Shown here piece by piece: positions 5,831-59,988 of a stretch of 64,000 nucleotides of DNA. The notes under the pieces were generated by a model, which did not search any database, was not told the DNA's origin, and worked only from the letters and a program-made list of their open reading frames with translations. The position numbers and the translations under genes were made by a program. How positions within the stretch are numbered: the stretch's first letter is position 1; each line of letters begins with the position of its first letter. The DNA comes from an uncultured Clostridiaceae bacterium (GTDB lineage Bacteria; Bacillota; Clostridia; TANB77; CAG-465): assembly GCA_964371585.1 (NCBI GenBank), contig CAYJMD010000001.1, positions 97,709 to 161,708 of the forward strand, read 5' to 3'.

Positions 5831-7312
5831 ATGAATAGAAACGATATATACAAAGATATAAGTTTAAGAACGGGTGGGGATATATACTTAGGAGTAGTAG
5901 GGCCAGTTAGAACAGGCAAATCTACATTTATTAAAAATTTTATGGAGATGTTTGTTATACCAAATATTGAAAATGAATATAAGAAGGATAGAGCAAAAGA
6001 TGAACTTCCGCAAAGTGCAGCAGGTAAAACTATTATGACAACAGAGCCTAAATTTATTCCAAATGAATCTGTAGAAGTCTCTTTAGAAAATAATGTTAAG
6101 CTTAAAACTAGACTAGTAGATTGTGTAGGATATCTTGTAAAAGATAGCATAGGATATTTAGAAAATGATATGCCAAGAATGGTTAAAACACCTTGGTCTA
6201 GTGAAGAAATGGAATTTGCACAAGCTGCAGAAATTGGTACAAAAAAAGTAATTGAAGAACATTCTACAATTGGCTTAGTTGTTACTACAGATGGTAGTAT
6301 TACGGATATAGATAGAGATTCATATGTAGAAGCAGAAGAAAGAGTAATAGATGAACTTAAACAGTTAAATAAACCTTTTGTTATACTACTTAACTCTACT
6401 GATCCAAGTAGTGAAAATACAAGATCGCTAAAATTAGAATTAGAAGAGAAATATAATGCTCCTGTTATGGCAACTGATGTTTCACAGCTTAAAGAAGAAG
6501 ATGTAGAGGAAGTTTTTGAAAAAGTTTTAGGTGAATTTCCTATAACAGAAATAGGTATTAATCTTCCTAAATGGTTTAATATCTTAGAATTTAATCACTG
6601 GCTTAAACAAGATATGTCTAAGATAGTTAAAGAATCTTTTGGAAATGATTATTCATTAAGAGAAGTAAGAAATATAGTATCTTCTATGAGAGACAGTCAT
6701 GATATAATATCAAATATAAATATTGATGATACTAAAATGCAAGATGGAACAATACACTTAACTATCGAGATAGATAATAGCATATTCTATAAGATACTTG
6801 CAGAAATATCAAATGCTGATATATCAACTGAAGCTGATATATTTAAAATAATGAAAGAATATAAAACGACTAAGGCAGAGTATGATAAAATTAAAATGGC
6901 TTTAGAAGAAGTTAGAATAAAAGGTTATGGTATAGTAACTCCTCAAATTGATGAACTATCACTTGAAGAACCAGAAATTGTTAAACAAGGTTCTAAGTTT
7001 GGAGTTAAACTAAAAGCGTCAGCTCCAAGTATACATATGGTAAGATGTGATGTTGAGACTGAAGTAAGTCCAATAGTAGGAAGTGAAAAGCAATCAGAAG
7101 ATTTAGTTAAATACTTATTATCTGAGTTTGAAAATGATCCTAAAAAAATATGGGAATCAAATATTTTTGGTAAGTCATTGCATGAACTTGTAAATGAAGG
7201 TCTGCAAAATAAACTATATAGAATGCCAGATGAAGCTCAAATGAAATTACAAGAAACTCTGCAACGAATAATCAATGAAGGTAGCTCCGGTCTTATTTGT
7301 ATAATACTTTAA
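5831..7312 (+). CDS. spoIVA: stage IV sporulation protein A (spore coat morphogenetic ATPase)
   Basis: MNRNDIYKDISLRTGGDIYLGVVGPVRTGKSTFIK (Walker A), ELPQSAAGKTIMTTEPKFIP, 493 aa full length. GGAGGG RBS. Confidence 0.95.
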   Translation: MNRNDIYKDISLRTGGDIYLGVVGPVRTGKSTFIKNFMEMFVIPNIENEYKKDRAKDELPQSAAGKTIMTTEPKFIPNESVEVSLENNVKLKTRLVDCVGYLVKDSIGYLENDMPRMVKTPWSSEEMEFAQAAEIGTKKVIEEHSTIGLVVTTDGSITDIDRDSYVEAEERVIDELKQLNKPFVILLNSTDPSSENTRSLKLELEEKYNAPVMATDVSQLKEEDVEEVFEKVLGEFPITEIGINLPKWFNILEFNHWLKQDMSKIVKESFGNDYSLREVRNIVSSMRDSHDIISNINIDDTKMQDGTIHLTIEIDNSIFYKILAEISNADISTEADIFKIMKEYKTTKAEYDKIKMALEEVRIKGYGIVTPQIDELSLEEPEIVKQGSKFGVKLKASAPSIHMVRCDVETEVSPIVGSEKQSEDLVKYLLSEFENDPKKIWESNIFGKSLHELVNEGLQNKLYRMPDEAQMKLQETLQRIINEGSSGLICIIL

Positions 7313-7455: not shown

Positions 7456-7698
7456 ATGGCTAATGAGATTAAATGTGTGAAATGTGGATCAAAAGAGATA
7501 TCAATTGAAAAACAACGCAAGAATGTACAAAGACATATGGTATACAGTTGGAATGGATTAGGAGGTTCTAAAGGTCAAGAATATAGAATAAAATCTTATG
7601 ATACTATTTTATTATGTGAATGCCAAAATTGTTCTGAAAAATTTGAAAAACAAGGCGATTCATATAAAGATACTTTAGGACGTGGTGAATGGAATTAA
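7456..7698 (+). CDS. small zinc-ribbon protein, hypothetical
   Basis: CxxC pairs (CVKCGS ... CECQNCS). AAGGAGAG RBS. Followed by a terminator. Confidence 0.55.
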   Translation: MANEIKCVKCGSKEISIEKQRKNVQRHMVYSWNGLGGSKGQEYRIKSYDTILLCECQNCSEKFEKQGDSYKDTLGRGEWN

Positions 7699-50518: not shown

Positions 50519-51121
50519 ATGAATAATATAGATGAGTCATATTCTTCAAAAACATCACTCTACTGTTATAAAGATACAAATATATTAATTAATAAGTTAG
50601 ATATTAAAAGTGAAAAGAAGTTACACACTCTTGAAAGAAAAATTGTACTTCTTAAATCTTATGAATTAAGACAAAAAAATGTAACTGGTGATTTTTCTAT
50701 TAATCACTTTAAGAATATTCATAAATTCTTATTTGAAAATATTTATGATTTTGCAGGAGAATTTAGAAAAGAAGATATAGCTAAAGATAGTTTTAGATTT
50801 GCTAGTTTTTTATATATTGAAGATGAATTAAATAGAATACTAAATAAATTAAAATTAGAAAATTATTTAATTGGTATATCTAAAGAAAATCTTTCTAAAG
50901 AACTTGCATATTATCTTGCTGAAATAAATGTGCTACATCCTTTTAGAGAAGGTAATGGAAGAGTTACAAGAGAATTTATAAGACAAATAGCATATAATGC
51001 TGGTTATAAGTTTGATTTGAGATCTATAGAGCCTAAAGCTATATTAGATGCTTGTATTAAATCTGTATACGATACAATAGATTTGGAAAATATAATTAAA
51101 GAATGTTTATTTAAAATATAA
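50519..51121 (+). CDS. fic: Fic family protein (class I, E. coli Fic/FicT-like, AMP-transferase motif intact)
   Basis: Canonical Fic motif HPFREGNGRVTR. N-terminal YCYKDTNILINKLDI and IHKFLFENIYDFAGEFR resemble E. coli Fic. 200 aa. Confidence 0.88.
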   Translation: MNNIDESYSSKTSLYCYKDTNILINKLDIKSEKKLHTLERKIVLLKSYELRQKNVTGDFSINHFKNIHKFLFENIYDFAGEFRKEDIAKDSFRFASFLYIEDELNRILNKLKLENYLIGISKENLSKELAYYLAEINVLHPFREGNGRVTREFIRQIAYNAGYKFDLRSIEPKAILDACIKSVYDTIDLENIIKECLFKI

Positions 51122-54729: not shown

Positions 54730-54850
54730 ATAAAAAACAAGATTATATTATATATAGTCTTGTTTTTTTATGTAAATAATGTTATAATTATATACGTAAT
54801 AATATAAAAAATATACACTGATTATGTGTATGGTTAAGACAGGAGAAAAA

Positions 54851-55054
54851 ATGCAAGAACTAAAAACACTAATGAATGATTTAACTTTAAAATCATTAAT
54901 ATTGATTGTACATGTTTTGATTATTTTTATTATAATCATATTTATACAATTTAATATTAATTTAAACTTATTATCTGCTAAAGTAGATAATTTAGAAAAA
55001 CAGGTAGCTAATTATTCACAAAAAATTTCTGAATTTAATATTAATTTAAATTAA
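54851..55054 (+). CDS. small membrane/coiled-coil protein, hypothetical
   Basis: AGGAGAAAAA RBS plus ATG 54851. One TM helix (LILIVHVLIIFIIIIFI) followed by a short coiled coil. Confidence 0.4.
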   Translation: MQELKTLMNDLTLKSLILIVHVLIIFIIIIFIQFNINLNLLSAKVDNLEKQVANYSQKISEFNINLN

Positions 55055-55101: not shown

Positions 55102-55132
55102 AAATAACACTGAAAAATTTTCAGTGTTATTT
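55102..55132. repeat. palindromic hairpin, copy 1 (bidirectional terminator-like); near-identical to 59960-59988
   Basis: AAATAACACTGAAAA, A, TTTTCAGTGTTATTT: a perfect 15+15 palindrome lying between convergent genes. Confidence 0.8.
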
Positions 55133-55171: not shown

Positions 55172-55507
55172 CTATGGTACTGTTTCTGGTTCTGGTGCTT
55201 CTTCAGTTTGAGATGCTAAAGATACAACATCTTCCATTTTCATACCGATTAACATTTGATTTTTTATAACGTCTCTTAGCATCTTGTTTGATGATTTATT
55301 TATTTCCATGATTTCATCTAAACTAGCAGCAGTTCCATTAGCTGTTTCAAGTGTTCCTAAAGCGAATTGAATTTTTTCAGCTTCAGCATTAACGATATGG
55401 GCCATACTAAGTTCTTCCATACCTATTGAAGATAAGATTACATTTAATGCATCATCTCTTGAAATAGTAACTGTTGGACTTAAATCTGGTATACTTGGCA
55501 TTGACAT
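55172..55507 (-). CDS. small acidic protein (111 aa), putative partner/anchor of the 985-aa repeat protein
   Basis: AGGAGGG RBS. No signal peptide. Helical motif GMEELSMAHIVNAEAEKIQFALG. Residues about 60-97 (LDEIMEINKSSNKMLRDVIKNQMLIGMKMEDVVSL) are homologous to the C-terminus of ORF 56954-59911. Confidence 0.7.
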   Translation of the reverse strand: MSMPSIPDLSPTVTISRDDALNVILSSIGMEELSMAHIVNAEAEKIQFALGTLETANGTAASLDEIMEINKSSNKMLRDVIKNQMLIGMKMEDVVSLASQTEEAPEPETVP

Positions 55508-55556
55508 ATATTTTTCCCTCCTAAAATTTAATCAAGAGTATTATTAACTCTTAATG

Positions 55557-55584
55557 TATACTATGAGTTTGTATATAATCATGT
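55557..55584 (-). promoter_or_regulatory. sigma-K-like promoter upstream of the 111-aa gene
   Basis: The minus strand reads AC, a 17-nt spacer, then CATAGTATA, which fits the AC-17-CATAnnnTA consensus. It lies about 50 nt upstream of the ATG. The motif has low information content in AT-rich DNA. Confidence 0.4.
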
Positions 55585-55781
55585 TACAAATTGATATATA
55601 AGTAACAAAATAAAAAATGTGTCGTACTATATAATAAGGAAATATGACTTTTTAATTAAGAGTTATAATTCTAAAACATTTATACAGTTACACTAGTAGG
55701 ATTTGTATACTACTAATAAATATATGTAAGTGTTATAAATAATATAATTCAAAATATAATTTATCAAAAGGGAGTGTTTTT

Positions 55782-56939
55782 ATGAATATATTTAAAAAAT
55801 TATTTAAAAGAAAAGAAGAAATTAAACTTACAGAAGAAGTAGTGGAAAATGTAAAGGAAGAAAATAGCATTTTATCTGAGCAAATAACTAATAATGAAAC
55901 TGTAGAAATACAAAGAAAAGATAAAATTATAGAAGAAATAAATATAACTGAAAAATCAAAAGAAGATGAAGTGATAGAGCTTAATAATGAAATCAATAGT
56001 GATTATATAATTGAAGAAAGCAGTATAACCAATGATAACATATCTGAATATGTAGATATTGTAAATGAAGTAGAAAAATGGACAGATAATGTATCTGATG
56101 AATTTAAAGAAATAATACGATTTAAAAAGTTATTCGAAATACTTTTAAAACTAAATAAAACAACTACTACAAAAGTAGATATTGAAACTACAAATGAAGT
56201 AGTGAAAAATATTGTTGAAAAAGAAAAATTATTACTAGATCAAACTAATTCTTCTATAGAAAAAGATGAAAATAATAATAATATTAAATTAATGAATGAT
56301 TTACTAAGTATTTTTAATAATACTAATATTTTAGAAGCTAAAGAGTTAGATATCAATTACGAAAATTTTTATTTGTTGCCTCAATATAAATATACGATTG
56401 AGTTAGAAAATATTATTAATTTTTTTAAAGAAGATAAACATAATACTGCTATAAAAAATGAATTAGATATAGAATATAGCGAATTTGAAAAAATAGCTAA
56501 AAATATAATACCCAAAAGTAAAAAAACAGCTCATGATGTAACAGTATTTAGTAGTGAAATAGAAAATTTTAGAAAAGAAGTTGAGCAATTTTCTATAACA
56601 CTCGCTAAAGCTAAATCTTTAAGTAAAATTGAGCTTAAAGGTCAATATGATAAATTAACAAGAGAAAGAGCAGCTCTTCTTAATAAAAAAGAAGCATATA
56701 TGACTAAAGAAGAAAGTCTAAATGTAAATATTAGAGCTACTATAAAAGAGCAGGAAGTATTTATTACTAAATTCTTAGATATAGCTGAATATTTAAAAAT
56801 ATATATAAAGCAGGAATTAGCAGACGAAAAATTAAAAAATCCTACATATACAAATGATAAAACTAGAGCTAAAATACAAGAGATTAAGTATAGTATAGAG
56901 GTATTAACTAATTTAGATAATATACTAAAAATAGAGTGA
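55782..56939 (+). CDS. coiled-coil protein (385 aa), hypothetical
   Basis: AAAGGGAG RBS. E/K/N-rich and helical, with no TM helix or signal peptide. 14 nt upstream of the 985-aa gene. Confidence 0.6.
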   Translation: MNIFKKLFKRKEEIKLTEEVVENVKEENSILSEQITNNETVEIQRKDKIIEEINITEKSKEDEVIELNNEINSDYIIEESSITNDNISEYVDIVNEVEKWTDNVSDEFKEIIRFKKLFEILLKLNKTTTTKVDIETTNEVVKNIVEKEKLLLDQTNSSIEKDENNNNIKLMNDLLSIFNNTNILEAKELDINYENFYLLPQYKYTIELENIINFFKEDKHNTAIKNELDIEYSEFEKIAKNIIPKSKKTAHDVTVFSSEIENFRKEVEQFSITLAKAKSLSKIELKGQYDKLTRERAALLNKKEAYMTKEESLNVNIRATIKEQEVFITKFLDIAEYLKIYIKQELADEKLKNPTYTNDKTRAKIQEIKYSIEVLTNLDNILKIE

Positions 56940-56953
56940 AAGGGATGTGAAAA

Positions 56954-59911
56954 ATGTATACAATAATTAGTGAGGTAGATAGAGAAAAAGGTAATTATGA
57001 AGATGTATTTATATACACTTTAAATGCCGGGTTTAGTGGAATAGCAGGTAGTGTTACTAAAGCAGAAATTAAAATGTTTATTCCAGATTTTCTAGATATA
57101 TATTTAGGAGATATTGAAAGCCCAATAAGAGACATAAGAGAAGAAGTCGTAGTAGGAGGTAAAGATGTAATATTTGATTTTGGTCAGTTAGACGATTTAG
57201 GAGTAAGTGTTAGAATTGGTTTTGGCGTTGTTTTTAAAACTACAACACCATCACTTACAACTTTTGATTTAACTTCAAGTATCTATATAAATGATACTTT
57301 AGAAACTGAATATACAAATACTCCTATCACACTTGAAGTGATTCCAAGATTTGAAATTTCAAGAGAAGTAGTACTTCCTACTATTGATCCAGCTCCAGGT
57401 TCAGAAGTGTACTTTAAAGTTACACTTGAAAATTTTAAAGATCTGGGCGCTAATATTAATAATGTAAGTATAGTATGTGAAAGTTTAGATGAACTTACTA
57501 TTGATCCTACATTTGAAATATCAGGTAAAGATGTTTCAAGTAAATTTGCAGACACTACTAGTGATGGAGTTTTAGGTCAAGTAGTAGATAATAGGGTAGA
57601 ATTTAACCTTACTTCGTACAAAGGAGAAAAATATGAATTTATATATAAAGCAGTTATAGATGATACTTTAGATATAGGAACAGAGCTTGTATCAACAGCT
57701 AATTGGAGTGTTGATTCTGTGGTAGATGTTCCAGATATTCATACAATAACATTAGGAGAGGAAGTAAGATCAGCAGTTATACCAGTATATGCTCCTGATT
57801 ATACACTTCAAGATGAACATATCGGATATGAATTTAATATAAGAAATACAGGTAATCAAATGTTAGAAACAGTTAGACTAATTGAGACACTTCCAGATGA
57901 TATTAATTACAATAGATTTGAAACGGGTATTTTCCATTTTTCAGGTATAAACTTAGCTATTGATACTGAGTATCAAATTGAGTATACAACTGTTCTTGGA
58001 ACAACTGATACTTTTGGTCCATTTAATACAAATACTAATAGCACAGTTGATTTAAATTTCCTACTTGATGCTGGAGATAATATTGCAACATTAGTATGGG
58101 AGTTACCTGCATTAAGAGTAGGTGTTGAAAGTAAAGTAGCACCTAAAATAGATGGTATAGTCAAATCAGATGTTACACTAGGATCTACTATATTAAACGA
58201 TTTAGAATTAAATTATATAGTAAATTCTTTACCTGTTACAGTTAGAAATACTAGAAGTACACTTGTGCAAAATGTATGTGTTCTTAATAATTCCTTTAAT
58301 CAAAATTTAAAAAATGTGCCAATTAATCCAGGGACAACTTTAAATTATCAAATTGGGGCGACATGTAGAGAATCTAGACTTTCTAATCCTATAATAGCAT
58401 TTATGCTTCCTAAAGAATTAGAATATGTTGGTAACGAAACAATTAATTATGTTGATTTCTTTGTTGATCCAGAAACTCCAATTTTACCACCAGCTGTAAT
58501 TATTCCAAATATAAATGCAAATGGTGATAGTATAGTTAAATTTGAATTTAAAGATGCATATGCATTTACTTTTAGACAAAAATCAAACTTTAATATTTCT
58601 TTTGATACTAGAGTTAAAATTGGTGCAACTGGAACATTTGAAACGTTTACAATTTTAAATACACTTGATGCTTCTGAAATAATACCAGATGAATCAGATA
58701 TTTATAGAGATTTAAATGATATTGCTGAAGATCCAAATGTATCTGAAGAATATGCAAAAAGTATAGTAAACTCAAATAGAATACTATTTTTTGTAAGTAC
58801 AAAAAGTAATAAAAAAGTAAAAGGATTGTTAGATATAGACTATGTAGAAGAACCAGCAGTTGCAAATACAACAGCAGGTGGAAGAATAGACTATAAAATA
58901 ACAATAACTAATATAGGAAATGTTGAACTCGAAGAAATAGAAATTGTAGATATATTACCACATTTAAATGATACAGCAGTATTATCATCTGGGATTTTAC
59001 GAGATAGTGATTATGGTATTTATACTATACAAGAAGTATCAGCTAAAATAATAAGAGAAGATTTAACAGAAGAAGTTAGTTTTGATATTTATTATTCTAA
59101 TAGTTTTGATCCTGTTAGATTTGGACCAACATTTAATGTTATAGGGACAGTTGATGATTGGACAAATGTAGCCCCAAGTGATTTAGTTAATATTAAAGCA
59201 TTTAAAGTAAAAACTAAAGATGTACAAATATTACCAAATGATATATTACAAATTGATGTAGTTGCTGTTGCTCCAGTTGGAACACCAACTTTAAGTGTAG
59301 CATGGAATTCATTTGCAGCAAATTCAGTATATAAAGATTTAGATGGAATAGCAACTAATTTACTTGCTATTGAACCTGAAAAAGTAGGAATAACAATTAA
59401 TGATACTCCTGCAGATAAAGGGGTAATAAATGGATATGCTTGGTTTGATACTAATAAAGATGGAATACCAGACGCATCAGAAATAGGATTAAATGATATC
59501 GGGATAATGCTTTTAACTGAAGATGGAACAATAAAAGACTATACATTTACAACACCAGATTTTTTAGGAATTAATGGTTATTATAGCTTTAATAATTTGG
59601 ATTATGGTAATTACACTTTAAGGTTCTTTAAAGATCCTAAATATGCATTTACTATGAAAAATACAGATGTTGAAAATGGAAGTAAAGTTAATCCAGCAAC
59701 TTCATTTACTGATGAATTTACAATTGATGCTACAACTAATGTTATAACTGCAAATGTTGGACTTGTTGAAAGAGCACAAATAGGTATAAAAAAATTACTA
59801 GAAGTTAATGAAAGTGCAAATCAAACTATGAAAAATATTATAAGAAATCAAATGTTAATTACTATGAAAACAGAAGATGCAGTAGAATTAATAAATATGG
59901 ATAAAGAATAA
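56954..59911 (+). CDS. large DUF11-type repeat protein with an SdrD-B-like domain and a C-terminal partner-homology tail; no signal peptide, no LPXTG
   Basis: At least four repeats of the conserved-repeat (DUF11) type: PGSEVYFKVTLENF..NNVSIVCESL, IGYEFNIRNTGNQMLETVRLIETLPDDI, PGTTLNYQIGATC..AFMLPKELEYV and GGRIDYKITITNIGNVELEEIEIVDILPH. SdrD-B/Cna-B-like segment INGYAWFDTNKDGIPDASEIGLNDIGIMLL...GYYSFNNLDYGNYTLRF (59423-59773). Tail at 59774-59908. Confidence 0.75.
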   Translation: MYTIISEVDREKGNYEDVFIYTLNAGFSGIAGSVTKAEIKMFIPDFLDIYLGDIESPIRDIREEVVVGGKDVIFDFGQLDDLGVSVRIGFGVVFKTTTPSLTTFDLTSSIYINDTLETEYTNTPITLEVIPRFEISREVVLPTIDPAPGSEVYFKVTLENFKDLGANINNVSIVCESLDELTIDPTFEISGKDVSSKFADTTSDGVLGQVVDNRVEFNLTSYKGEKYEFIYKAVIDDTLDIGTELVSTANWSVDSVVDVPDIHTITLGEEVRSAVIPVYAPDYTLQDEHIGYEFNIRNTGNQMLETVRLIETLPDDINYNRFETGIFHFSGINLAIDTEYQIEYTTVLGTTDTFGPFNTNTNSTVDLNFLLDAGDNIATLVWELPALRVGVESKVAPKIDGIVKSDVTLGSTILNDLELNYIVNSLPVTVRNTRSTLVQNVCVLNNSFNQNLKNVPINPGTTLNYQIGATCRESRLSNPIIAFMLPKELEYVGNETINYVDFFVDPETPILPPAVIIPNINANGDSIVKFEFKDAYAFTFRQKSNFNISFDTRVKIGATGTFETFTILNTLDASEIIPDESDIYRDLNDIAEDPNVSEEYAKSIVNSNRILFFVSTKSNKKVKGLLDIDYVEEPAVANTTAGGRIDYKITITNIGNVELEEIEIVDILPHLNDTAVLSSGILRDSDYGIYTIQEVSAKIIREDLTEEVSFDIYYSNSFDPVRFGPTFNVIGTVDDWTNVAPSDLVNIKAFKVKTKDVQILPNDILQIDVVAVAPVGTPTLSVAWNSFAANSVYKDLDGIATNLLAIEPEKVGITINDTPADKGVINGYAWFDTNKDGIPDASEIGLNDIGIMLLTEDGTIKDYTFTTPDFLGINGYYSFNNLDYGNYTLRFFKDPKYAFTMKNTDVENGSKVNPATSFTDEFTIDATTNVITANVGLVERAQIGIKKLLEVNESANQTMKNIIRNQMLITMKTEDAVELINMDKE

Positions 59912-59959: not shown

Positions 59960-59988
59960 AATAACACTGAAAATATTTCAGTGTTATT
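59960..59988. repeat. palindromic hairpin, copy 2 (bidirectional terminator-like)
   Basis: AATAACACTGAAA, ATA, TTTCAGTGTTATT. It differs from copy 1 only at 2 loop positions over about 32 nt. Confidence 0.8.

Follow-up and report, generated by a model that had tools for sequence, protein, structure and literature searches.

Three genes at positions 55172 to 59911 of a 64,000-nucleotide (nt) stretch of DNA from an uncultured Clostridiaceae bacterium (GCA_964371585.1, contig CAYJMD010000001.1, positions 97,709 to 161,708; the whole stretch is called the window) probably form a cluster for A-ENA, the alpha-helical endospore appendages or 'sporesilk' of Bacillus thuringiensis sv. israelensis (Bti) (Sleutel, Sogues, Remaut, Nat Commun 2026, PMC13111695), in which a giant protein is covalently grafted on the fibre via a tail that resembles helix alpha2 of the fibre subunit. 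The genes encode proteins of 111, 385, and 985 amino acids (aa), as they had been called in a first-pass annotation made from the letters of the window. The A-ENA fibre and its SdrD_B/DUF11 passenger fusions are already known, and the locus is a variant of a published system; new here are the truncation of the module to alpha2 with both crosslink residues, the conserved 385-aa accessory and, in other lineages, a divergent minor paralog.

The Bti protein of 101 aa (Q8KNV8; PDB 9IHH) assembles into a two-start cross-alpha fibre of stacked helical hairpins, which is held together by an N-terminal lock and by intermolecular isopeptide bonds of five types (IPB1 to IPB5) that form autocatalytically. 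Self-assembly needs no accessory factor, and the stability of fibres with 6 isopeptide bonds per protomer equals that of fibres with 10; a SigK site is predicted for a-ena, and a reporter was on in sporulation only (PMC13111695). According to the same paper, A-ENA homologs are single-domain genes clustered with 'A-ENA fusion' genes; the commonest fusion ('ruffles') carries an N-terminal A-ENA followed by collagen-like and C1q parts, rarer passengers are SdrD_B (PF17210)/PF01345 and 4Fe-4S, and the fusions are modelled as docking onto fibres by mimicry of homotypic contacts.

By homology, the 111-aa protein (55172..55507, minus strand) is a member of the A-ENA (PF26595) family and is here called the major fibre subunit. 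It matched PDB 9ihh_A end to end (phmmer, E=1.8e-18; query 1-100, chain 1-94) and comprises, from its N-terminus, the lock, helices alpha1 and alpha2, and an extension rich in acidic residues and Pro. Its homologs numbered 303 small proteins (~98-160 aa) from several Clostridia lineages; the 120 listed of these 303 were 66-91% identical to it. The family name was taken from the precomputed Pfam tag of the small-protein homologs, which was PF26595 (A_ENA) throughout, and not from scans of the 111-aa protein against Pfam and NCBIfam, which gave no match, the Pfam release being older than PF26595. The N-terminal helix EELSMAHIVNAEAEKIQ, which the first-pass annotation had recognised from other small proteins and left without a family name, is A-ENA helix alpha1 and carries the catalytic/crosslinking residues E28/E29/E39/E41/K42/Q44 (published numbering). 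In the lock, the window sequence MSMPSIPDLSPTV stands against MGMPTIPEGLDI of Bti; S2, M3, P4, I6, and P7 are retained with a 3-residue insertion, and S2 is kept in 54/54 orthologs. The small protein had been proposed as a basal-layer protein of the spore surface; this part was abandoned, because PF26595 and the full-length match to 9IHH point to a polymerising fibre subunit.

The published isopeptide residues were mapped onto the 111-aa protein via the 9IHH alignment, and 3/5 triads (IPB1-3) are retained. IPB1 (residue-2 N-terminus to Q44, catalyst E41) corresponds to S2, Q47, and E44; IPB2 (K42 to N64, catalyst E39) to K45, N70, and E42; IPB3 (K84 to E29, catalyst E28) to K90, E32, and E31. 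The donor/acceptor pair K77/E78 of IPB4 is replaced by N83/Q84, and the acceptor Q82 of IPB5 by G88. The same pattern of retention and loss holds across 54 distinct orthologs from the module loci, in which the IPB1-3 residues including the catalysts are 98-100% conserved where the sequence is complete.

Major subunits, that of the window (55172-55210) and its orthologs, end in variable acidic Glu/Pro-rich C-terminal extensions of up to ~32 residues past the profile end, some of which score as PF05887 EP repeats. Since the C-terminus of Bti A-ENA tolerates surface-exposed tags, these acidic tails probably coat the fibre surface by analogy.

The giant protein (ORF at 56954..59911, plus strand) has the architecture that had been described from its translation, a DUF11 repeat and then an SdrD_B domain, with no signal peptide, transmembrane segment or LPXTG motif, as borne out by Pfam and hydropathy. 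The SdrD_B domain lies at residues 827-936 (Pfam, E=4e-16) and a DUF11/DUF7507-type (CLIPPER_2/DUF11) repeat near residues 636-673; PF24346 scored 38.5 bits (cut-off 27) and PF01345 22.7 bits (cut-off 24.6), both as partial matches, and NF000535 33 bits (cut-off 1700). PF17210, PF24346, and PF01345 are among the precomputed domains of the giant homologs. DUF11 and DUF7507 have since been renamed CLIPPER and CLIPPER_2; they are fibrillar-adhesin stalk domains in which intramolecular isopeptide bonds are frequent. The N-terminus of the giant has no signal-like hydrophobic stretch and is the first-domain beta-strand, which is conserved in all 33 homologs; the maximum Kyte-Doolittle 19-residue mean over the protein is 1.49. 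An AlphaFold2 (AF2) model built on the 33 homologs (mean predicted local distance difference test score, pLDDT, 87.9) is all-beta over residues 1-940 (56954..59773), an Ig-like beta-sandwich chain read as a passenger stalk/adhesin from AF2, Foldseek, and Pfam, and then forms a single helix of lower confidence at residues 945-984 (59786..59905). Foldseek matches were PrgB Ig-like domains (4e-20), SdrD, UafA, and integrin legs. Full-length relatives numbered 37 (39-64% identity), many of them with precomputed PF26595.

Relatives of the beta region of the giant, with 28% identity over residues ~285-920 and without the A-ENA tail, occur in Methylococcaceae metagenome-assembled genomes (MAGs; loci L056 8001-9920 and L057 982-2916). 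These tail-less relatives suggest, by sequence comparison, that the passenger stems from a broader adhesin family and that the A-ENA tail was gained secondarily.

The terminal helix of the giant is homologous to A-ENA alpha2 only. Small-protein residues 39-103 align with giant residues 924-985 (BLASTP, E=1e-9), with 16/35 core residues identical, which agrees with the identity of about half given in the first-pass annotation; its remark on nucleotide similarity likewise stood (65% identity over 105 nt, 34/42 in the NQMLI-MK-ED core). A profile made from the small-protein family matched, among all window ORFs of at least 40 aa, the small protein and the giant only; this A-ENA hidden Markov model (HMM) covered the small protein in full length and the giant only with positions 44-101, at residues 929-983 (E=3e-9). 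A complete hairpin of alpha1 and alpha2 is not present in the giant, which has neither lock nor alpha1; in the AF2 model no helix precedes that of residues 945-984, the preceding elements being beta strands. N952 of the tail is equivalent to N64, the IPB2 acceptor, and K972 to K84, the IPB3 donor; both are invariant in the 33-homolog alignment. Across 47 distinct giant tails, whose pairwise identity is only ~53%, the equivalents of N64, K84, and E86 are kept in 47/47, 45/47, and 44/47, respectively. The partners of N952 and K972 (equivalents of K42 and E29) sit in alpha1. The giant being without alpha1, such partners could be supplied only by a full A-ENA subunit; from the conservation of the two residues the tail would thus be expected to pack against full A-ENA subunits, and this is the main argument for covalent grafting. 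Tails are also slightly more similar to the alpha2 of the major subunit of their own locus (53.7%) than to those of other loci (51.7%; Wilcoxon p=0.01), which weakly favours grafting.

A scan with the giant alignment, one genome per species, gave 69 loci, which were annotated by tblastn and profiles (loci are cited by number). Giants were found almost only in MAGs of study ERP123703, with a few in Niameybacter, Cellulosilyticaceae, and 'FM_' MAGs. Five module genes recur: the major A-ENA gene, the 385-aa gene, a minor A-ENA paralog, the giant, and a gene for a ~192-aa membrane protein; the window holds the major gene, the 385-aa gene, and the giant. The major gene (65-91% identical to that of the window) is usually divergent from the giant and within ~2 kb of it, and a conserved A-ENA gene lies within that distance at nearly every giant locus with enough flanking DNA; of all ~50 giant loci, most show this adjacency, as does the window. 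The linkage of small and giant genes across Clostridia, which had been proposed as a check, was thus found. The major gene is far commoner than the giant and often stands alone, lone A-ENA genes occurring in Candidatus Epulonipiscioides gigas, among others. In most lineages a minor A-ENA paralog, 25-35% identical to the major subunit, is encoded directly upstream of the giant (L010 7480-7980, L012 7521-7913, L006 6482-6829, plus ~40 other loci); in these paralogs the crosslink residues of alpha1 are retained, as are K77/E78, and the N64 acceptor is mostly absent. The ~192-aa protein, predicted to be a multi-pass membrane protein and without Pfam domain, is encoded beside the major A-ENA gene in 24 loci, some of them without a giant (L011 5424-6041, L012 5351-5935, L041 5703-6281, and 21 others); it is not encoded in the window.

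The major gene is preceded by a sigma-K-type promoter motif ACATGATTATATACAAACTCATAGTATA (AC-N17-CATAnnnTA; 55557..55584, minus strand) with an extended GTAACA -35 element, and this motif begins 77 nt upstream of the A-ENA start codon; it reads AC-N17-CATAGTATA at 55584-55557 and had been noted as fitting the sigma-K consensus. The strict motif, defined as AC-N16-18-CATAnnnTA, is present in 27/55 distinct upstream regions of major A-ENA genes, in 25 of them at a fixed distance, versus 2.6% of 693 upstream regions of control ORFs in the same loci (Fisher p=1.5e-22); shuffles held a mean of 0.56 per 55. Many of the misses are one-mismatch variants with an identical GTAACA -35 element. Because the 64-kb window holds 14 strict matches, the match in the window is weak when taken alone, and the real evidence is its conservation across loci, from which we infer late mother-cell expression of the sigma-K type for the A-ENA gene. 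Scanning for the sigma-70 consensus returned fewer matches than shuffles did. That the organism sporulates had been deduced from spoIVA, which was recovered at 5831-7312 (TIGR02836, E=1e-222). A different conserved AT-rich motif, GTGTCAA-N~10-AACATATTATATTATA, lies upstream of minor-paralog/giant operons in many loci (for example L050 ~7480-7540, L023, L019, L021); it is distinct from the AC-N17-CATAnnnTA of the major gene and is possibly another mother-cell promoter or a regulator site.

The 385-aa protein gene (55782..56939, plus strand) ends 14 nt before the ATG of the giant, in line with the co-transcription that had been proposed, and family members adjoin the giant in 35 loci besides the window. 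An N-terminal M-x-[IL]-F-[SK]-K-[LI]-F motif (MNIFKKLFKRK in the window protein) is conserved in the family, followed in the alignment by a variable low-complexity middle and a conserved C-terminal region forming a long helical hairpin; the AF2 model is all-helical, and the hairpin is confident only at ~190-345 (pLDDT 80-95). The MxxFxKLF motif may resemble PspA/Vipp1-type amphipathic helices. Profile and structure searches, which had been suggested for all three proteins, yielded A-ENA for the small one and an Ig-like adhesin stalk for the giant, and no assignment for the 385-aa protein: scans of it against Pfam and NCBIfam gave no match, as did Pfam on 29 family members; a PDB profile search gave weak coiled-coil/designed-helix matches only; and the best Foldseek E was 0.15. 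A word-indexed homolog search returned the self-match only, and exhaustive phmmer found only 7 relatives among 1.84 billion representatives. By these comparisons, the family is narrow and fast-evolving, yet a real conserved component of the module. The hairpin was also considered as a homologous source of the missing alpha1; since hhalign against A-ENA gave a probability of 0.1%, such homology was rejected.

The mechanism we propose is as follows. A low-GC, spore-forming, Clostridium-like host carrying the A-ENA cluster would make the 111-aa major subunit late in the mother cell from the sigma-K-type promoter. The subunits would stack as alpha-helical hairpins into a cross-alpha fibre, which would lock itself by autocatalytic intermolecular isopeptides (N-terminus to Q47, K45 to N70, K90 to E32; six bonds per subunit). 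The giant would be a minor, passenger-bearing component, with a ~940-residue Ig-like stalk and one helix mimicking alpha2; this helix would dock at a fibre end or defect, within the layer of alpha2 helices. There, of two neighbouring major subunits, one would donate to N952 through its K45, and the other would accept from K972 at its E32. The fibre would thereby display a ~100-kDa adhesin without secretion signal or sortase. The co-transcribed 385-aa protein would be a conserved lineage-specific accessory, with nucleation, anchoring, and control of grafting as candidate roles. Only tentatively, and with some doubt, do we further suppose that the lone alpha2 helix suffices for covalent capture (one accepted and one donated bond), with the 385-aa protein and, in other lineages, the minor paralog acting as dedicated nucleation/adaptor factors.

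Several points weigh against this proposal. That a lone alpha2 helix docks and is crosslinked is what we infer from sequence, and a half-subunit would leave the alpha1 layer unfilled, which the fibre may not tolerate except at an end. The effect in own-locus similarity is small and could stem from shared composition. Since conservation does not extend to IPB4 and the inter-protofilament IPB5, the fibre architecture of the window protein may differ from that of Bti. In the window, a search ahead of the 385-aa/giant operon found no strict sigma-K motif, so that the sequence lends no support to sporulation-specific expression of this operon. No minor A-ENA paralog or remnant of one was found in the window; if the paralog, which precedes the giant in most other lineages, is an adaptor, the mechanism would here be incomplete or different. 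To our knowledge, an A-ENA fibre has never been seen on any clostridial spore, and the carriers are uncultured MAGs.

Three other explanations of the tail were weighed. The giant might act as a fibre-end cap or length regulator, which on joining a growing end blocks subunit addition and so terminates or nucleates the fibre, the Ig-like part being secondary. A tail of alpha2 only, which without alpha1 offers the next subunit no K42, E29, or Q44, would behave in this way, and the giant family is much rarer than the major one (37 vs >300 clusters), as fits a sub-stoichiometric component. We nevertheless think a mere cap unlikely: a well-conserved Ig-like part of ~940 residues, shared by 33 full-length homologs, would be costly for that purpose, and acceptor Asn and donor Lys are both kept, which makes links on both sides possible. 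Capping is compatible with covalent grafting of the giant, since an adhesin located at the tip would be both. A self-association coiled coil of A-ENA descent, by which the giant would oligomerise alone or with the 385-aa protein in a separate coat/exosporium structure, is quite unlikely in our judgement, although the tail helix is long, amphipathic, and isolated in the AF2 model, a conserved long-helical-hairpin protein (385 aa) is co-transcribed, and the A-ENA gene is frequent without the giant. In a homo-oligomer N952 and K972 would be partnerless (their partners are in alpha1), yet they are conserved as the tail counts above show; the giant almost never occurs without a nearby A-ENA gene where flanks exist; and the 385-aa family has no profile similarity to A-ENA by hhalign.

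Finally, the giant might be an ordinary secreted or wall-anchored vegetative adhesin with a cryptic export signal, its tail likeness being incidental; it has SdrD_B and CLIPPER domains, as is typical of fibrillar adhesins, the Foldseek matches are surface adhesins, and the beta-part relatives of Methylococcaceae are without tail. This we regard as highly improbable, given a protein without signal peptide, transmembrane segment, or LPXTG, an N-terminus that is a conserved domain strand in every homolog of the alignment, and a tail similarity that is significant both pairwise and by profile and is kept in 47 orthologs. Grafting of the giant on an A-ENA fibre, the preferred explanation, retains from the first-pass annotation a mother-cell system of the spore surface that needs no secretion signal and a tail serving as docking or heteromerisation module, and replaces its basal-layer partner by the fibre subunit. 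The three-gene combination had there not been recognised as a described system; this view is out of date, as clusters of A-ENA with SdrD_B/PF01345 fusions are reported in PMC13111695, and the alpha2-only tail and the 385-aa family are still new.

Compared with Bti A-ENA, the 111-aa protein aligns over the lock, alpha1, and alpha2 and keeps donor, acceptor, and catalyst of IPB1-3, and its gene has a sigma-K-type motif and adjoins further A-ENA-containing genes. Unlike in Bti, the host belongs to a low-GC Clostridia MAG lineage and not to the B. cereus group; the cluster is chromosomal and without toxin genes or amidase; and the subunit is without IPB4 (K77/E78 to N/Q) and the IPB5 acceptor (Q82 to G/S) and has a lock with 3 inserted residues and, at the C-terminus, an acidic/Pro-rich extension. 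The giant resembles the 'ruffles' fusions, as the text of the paper describes them, in joining a passenger (SdrD_B, PF01345) to an A-ENA module beside a single-domain A-ENA gene, and the docking proposed for it likewise mimics homotypic fibre contacts; its A-ENA part is C-terminal and alpha2 only, whereas that text has A-ENA N-terminal and the fusions C-terminal.

The Bacillus counterpart lies on B. mycoides plasmid p479 (NZ_CP036025.1, 87803-95611; locus L075), where one operon encodes four DUF11 proteins together with a RICIN-domain protein, all of them without signal peptide. Four of its proteins match the A-ENA profile, a 241-aa protein remaining under the reporting threshold; the hairpin is C-terminal in the three matching DUF11 proteins and internal in the RICIN protein, and each of the four DUF11 proteins has Cys-rich motifs (CC, CxxC) at its end. 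The giant is likewise a signal-peptide-less DUF11/CLIPPER protein whose last segment is homologous to A-ENA. In the Bacillus proteins the hairpin is complete (profile ~16-97, alpha1 and alpha2) and the ends are Cys-rich, whereas the giant family has alpha2 only, ~985 aa with SdrD_B, and the 385-aa protein as companion. Given these B. mycoides proteins, the joining of a C-terminal A-ENA module to a DUF11/SdrD_B passenger is to be counted as already known.

Tip fibrillae of S-/L-ENA (L-BclA on Ena3A) and BclA attached to the exosporium in the B. cereus group also show a passenger on the spore via a short targeting module and without secretion (in part from the discussion of PMC13111695); they differ from the window system in having unrelated folds (DUF3992 beta-rich pili, collagen/C1q) and in being held by disulfide bonds or the exosporium basal layer instead of cross-alpha isopeptide stacking. 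With MSCRAMM/Sdr proteins (SdrC/SdrD) the giant shares an SdrD_B domain and an Ig-like stalk architecture; it is not a member of this group, since it has no signal peptide, LPXTG, or SD repeats.

A-ENA fibres are a newly described, extremely robust self-crosslinking material, characterised so far only in Bacillus thuringiensis, and the window locus extends the system to uncultured Clostridia, where several genes form a conserved module. The locus offers a sequence-level rule for possible cargo attachment (one helix, one acceptor Asn, one donor Lys) and identifies two uncharacterised accessory families. If the grafting proposal is true, it explains how large adhesins are displayed on spores of gut anaerobes without secretion or sortases; it provides a natural, portable covalent tag of ~40 residues for irreversible display of cargo on A-ENA nanofibres. 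If, in addition, the 385-aa protein and the minor paralog act as nucleation/adaptor factors, assembly of a polymer hitherto regarded as free of accessories would gain a layer that depends on them.

The module is flanked by two copies of a 29-nt palindromic hairpin, one beyond each outer end: 55103..55131, 40 nt past the A-ENA stop and followed by a T-run (terminator-like left border), and 59960..59988, 49 nt past the stop of the giant (terminator-like right border). The arms AATAACACTGAAAA..TTTCAGTGTTATT occur in exactly 2 copies in the 64-kb window, the loop being the sole difference; no copy was found in any of 75 fetched loci. Both hairpins look like bidirectional terminators, and the identical borders could mark a cassette. 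The window neighbours of 72 aa, 166 aa, and 76 aa and a radical SAM protein were excluded as module parts, because they are not conserved beside the module in other loci. The 76-aa protein (54824-55054, between leuS and the A-ENA gene) contains a hydrophobic segment and weakly resembles DUF948. Upstream of leuS, a 200-aa Fic/VbhT-like adenylyltransferase is encoded (50519-51121); like the 76-aa protein, it is not conserved beside the module in other loci.

In Niameybacter (L004/L005 8360-11108 and 14310-16190; L032), two glycosyltransferase genes stand between two tandem A-ENA genes and the giant, followed by a gene for a 626-aa protein of unassigned function; a 213-aa protein with an N-terminal A-ENA domain is encoded nearby. 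This gene arrangement suggests that the Niameybacter appendages may be glycosylated.

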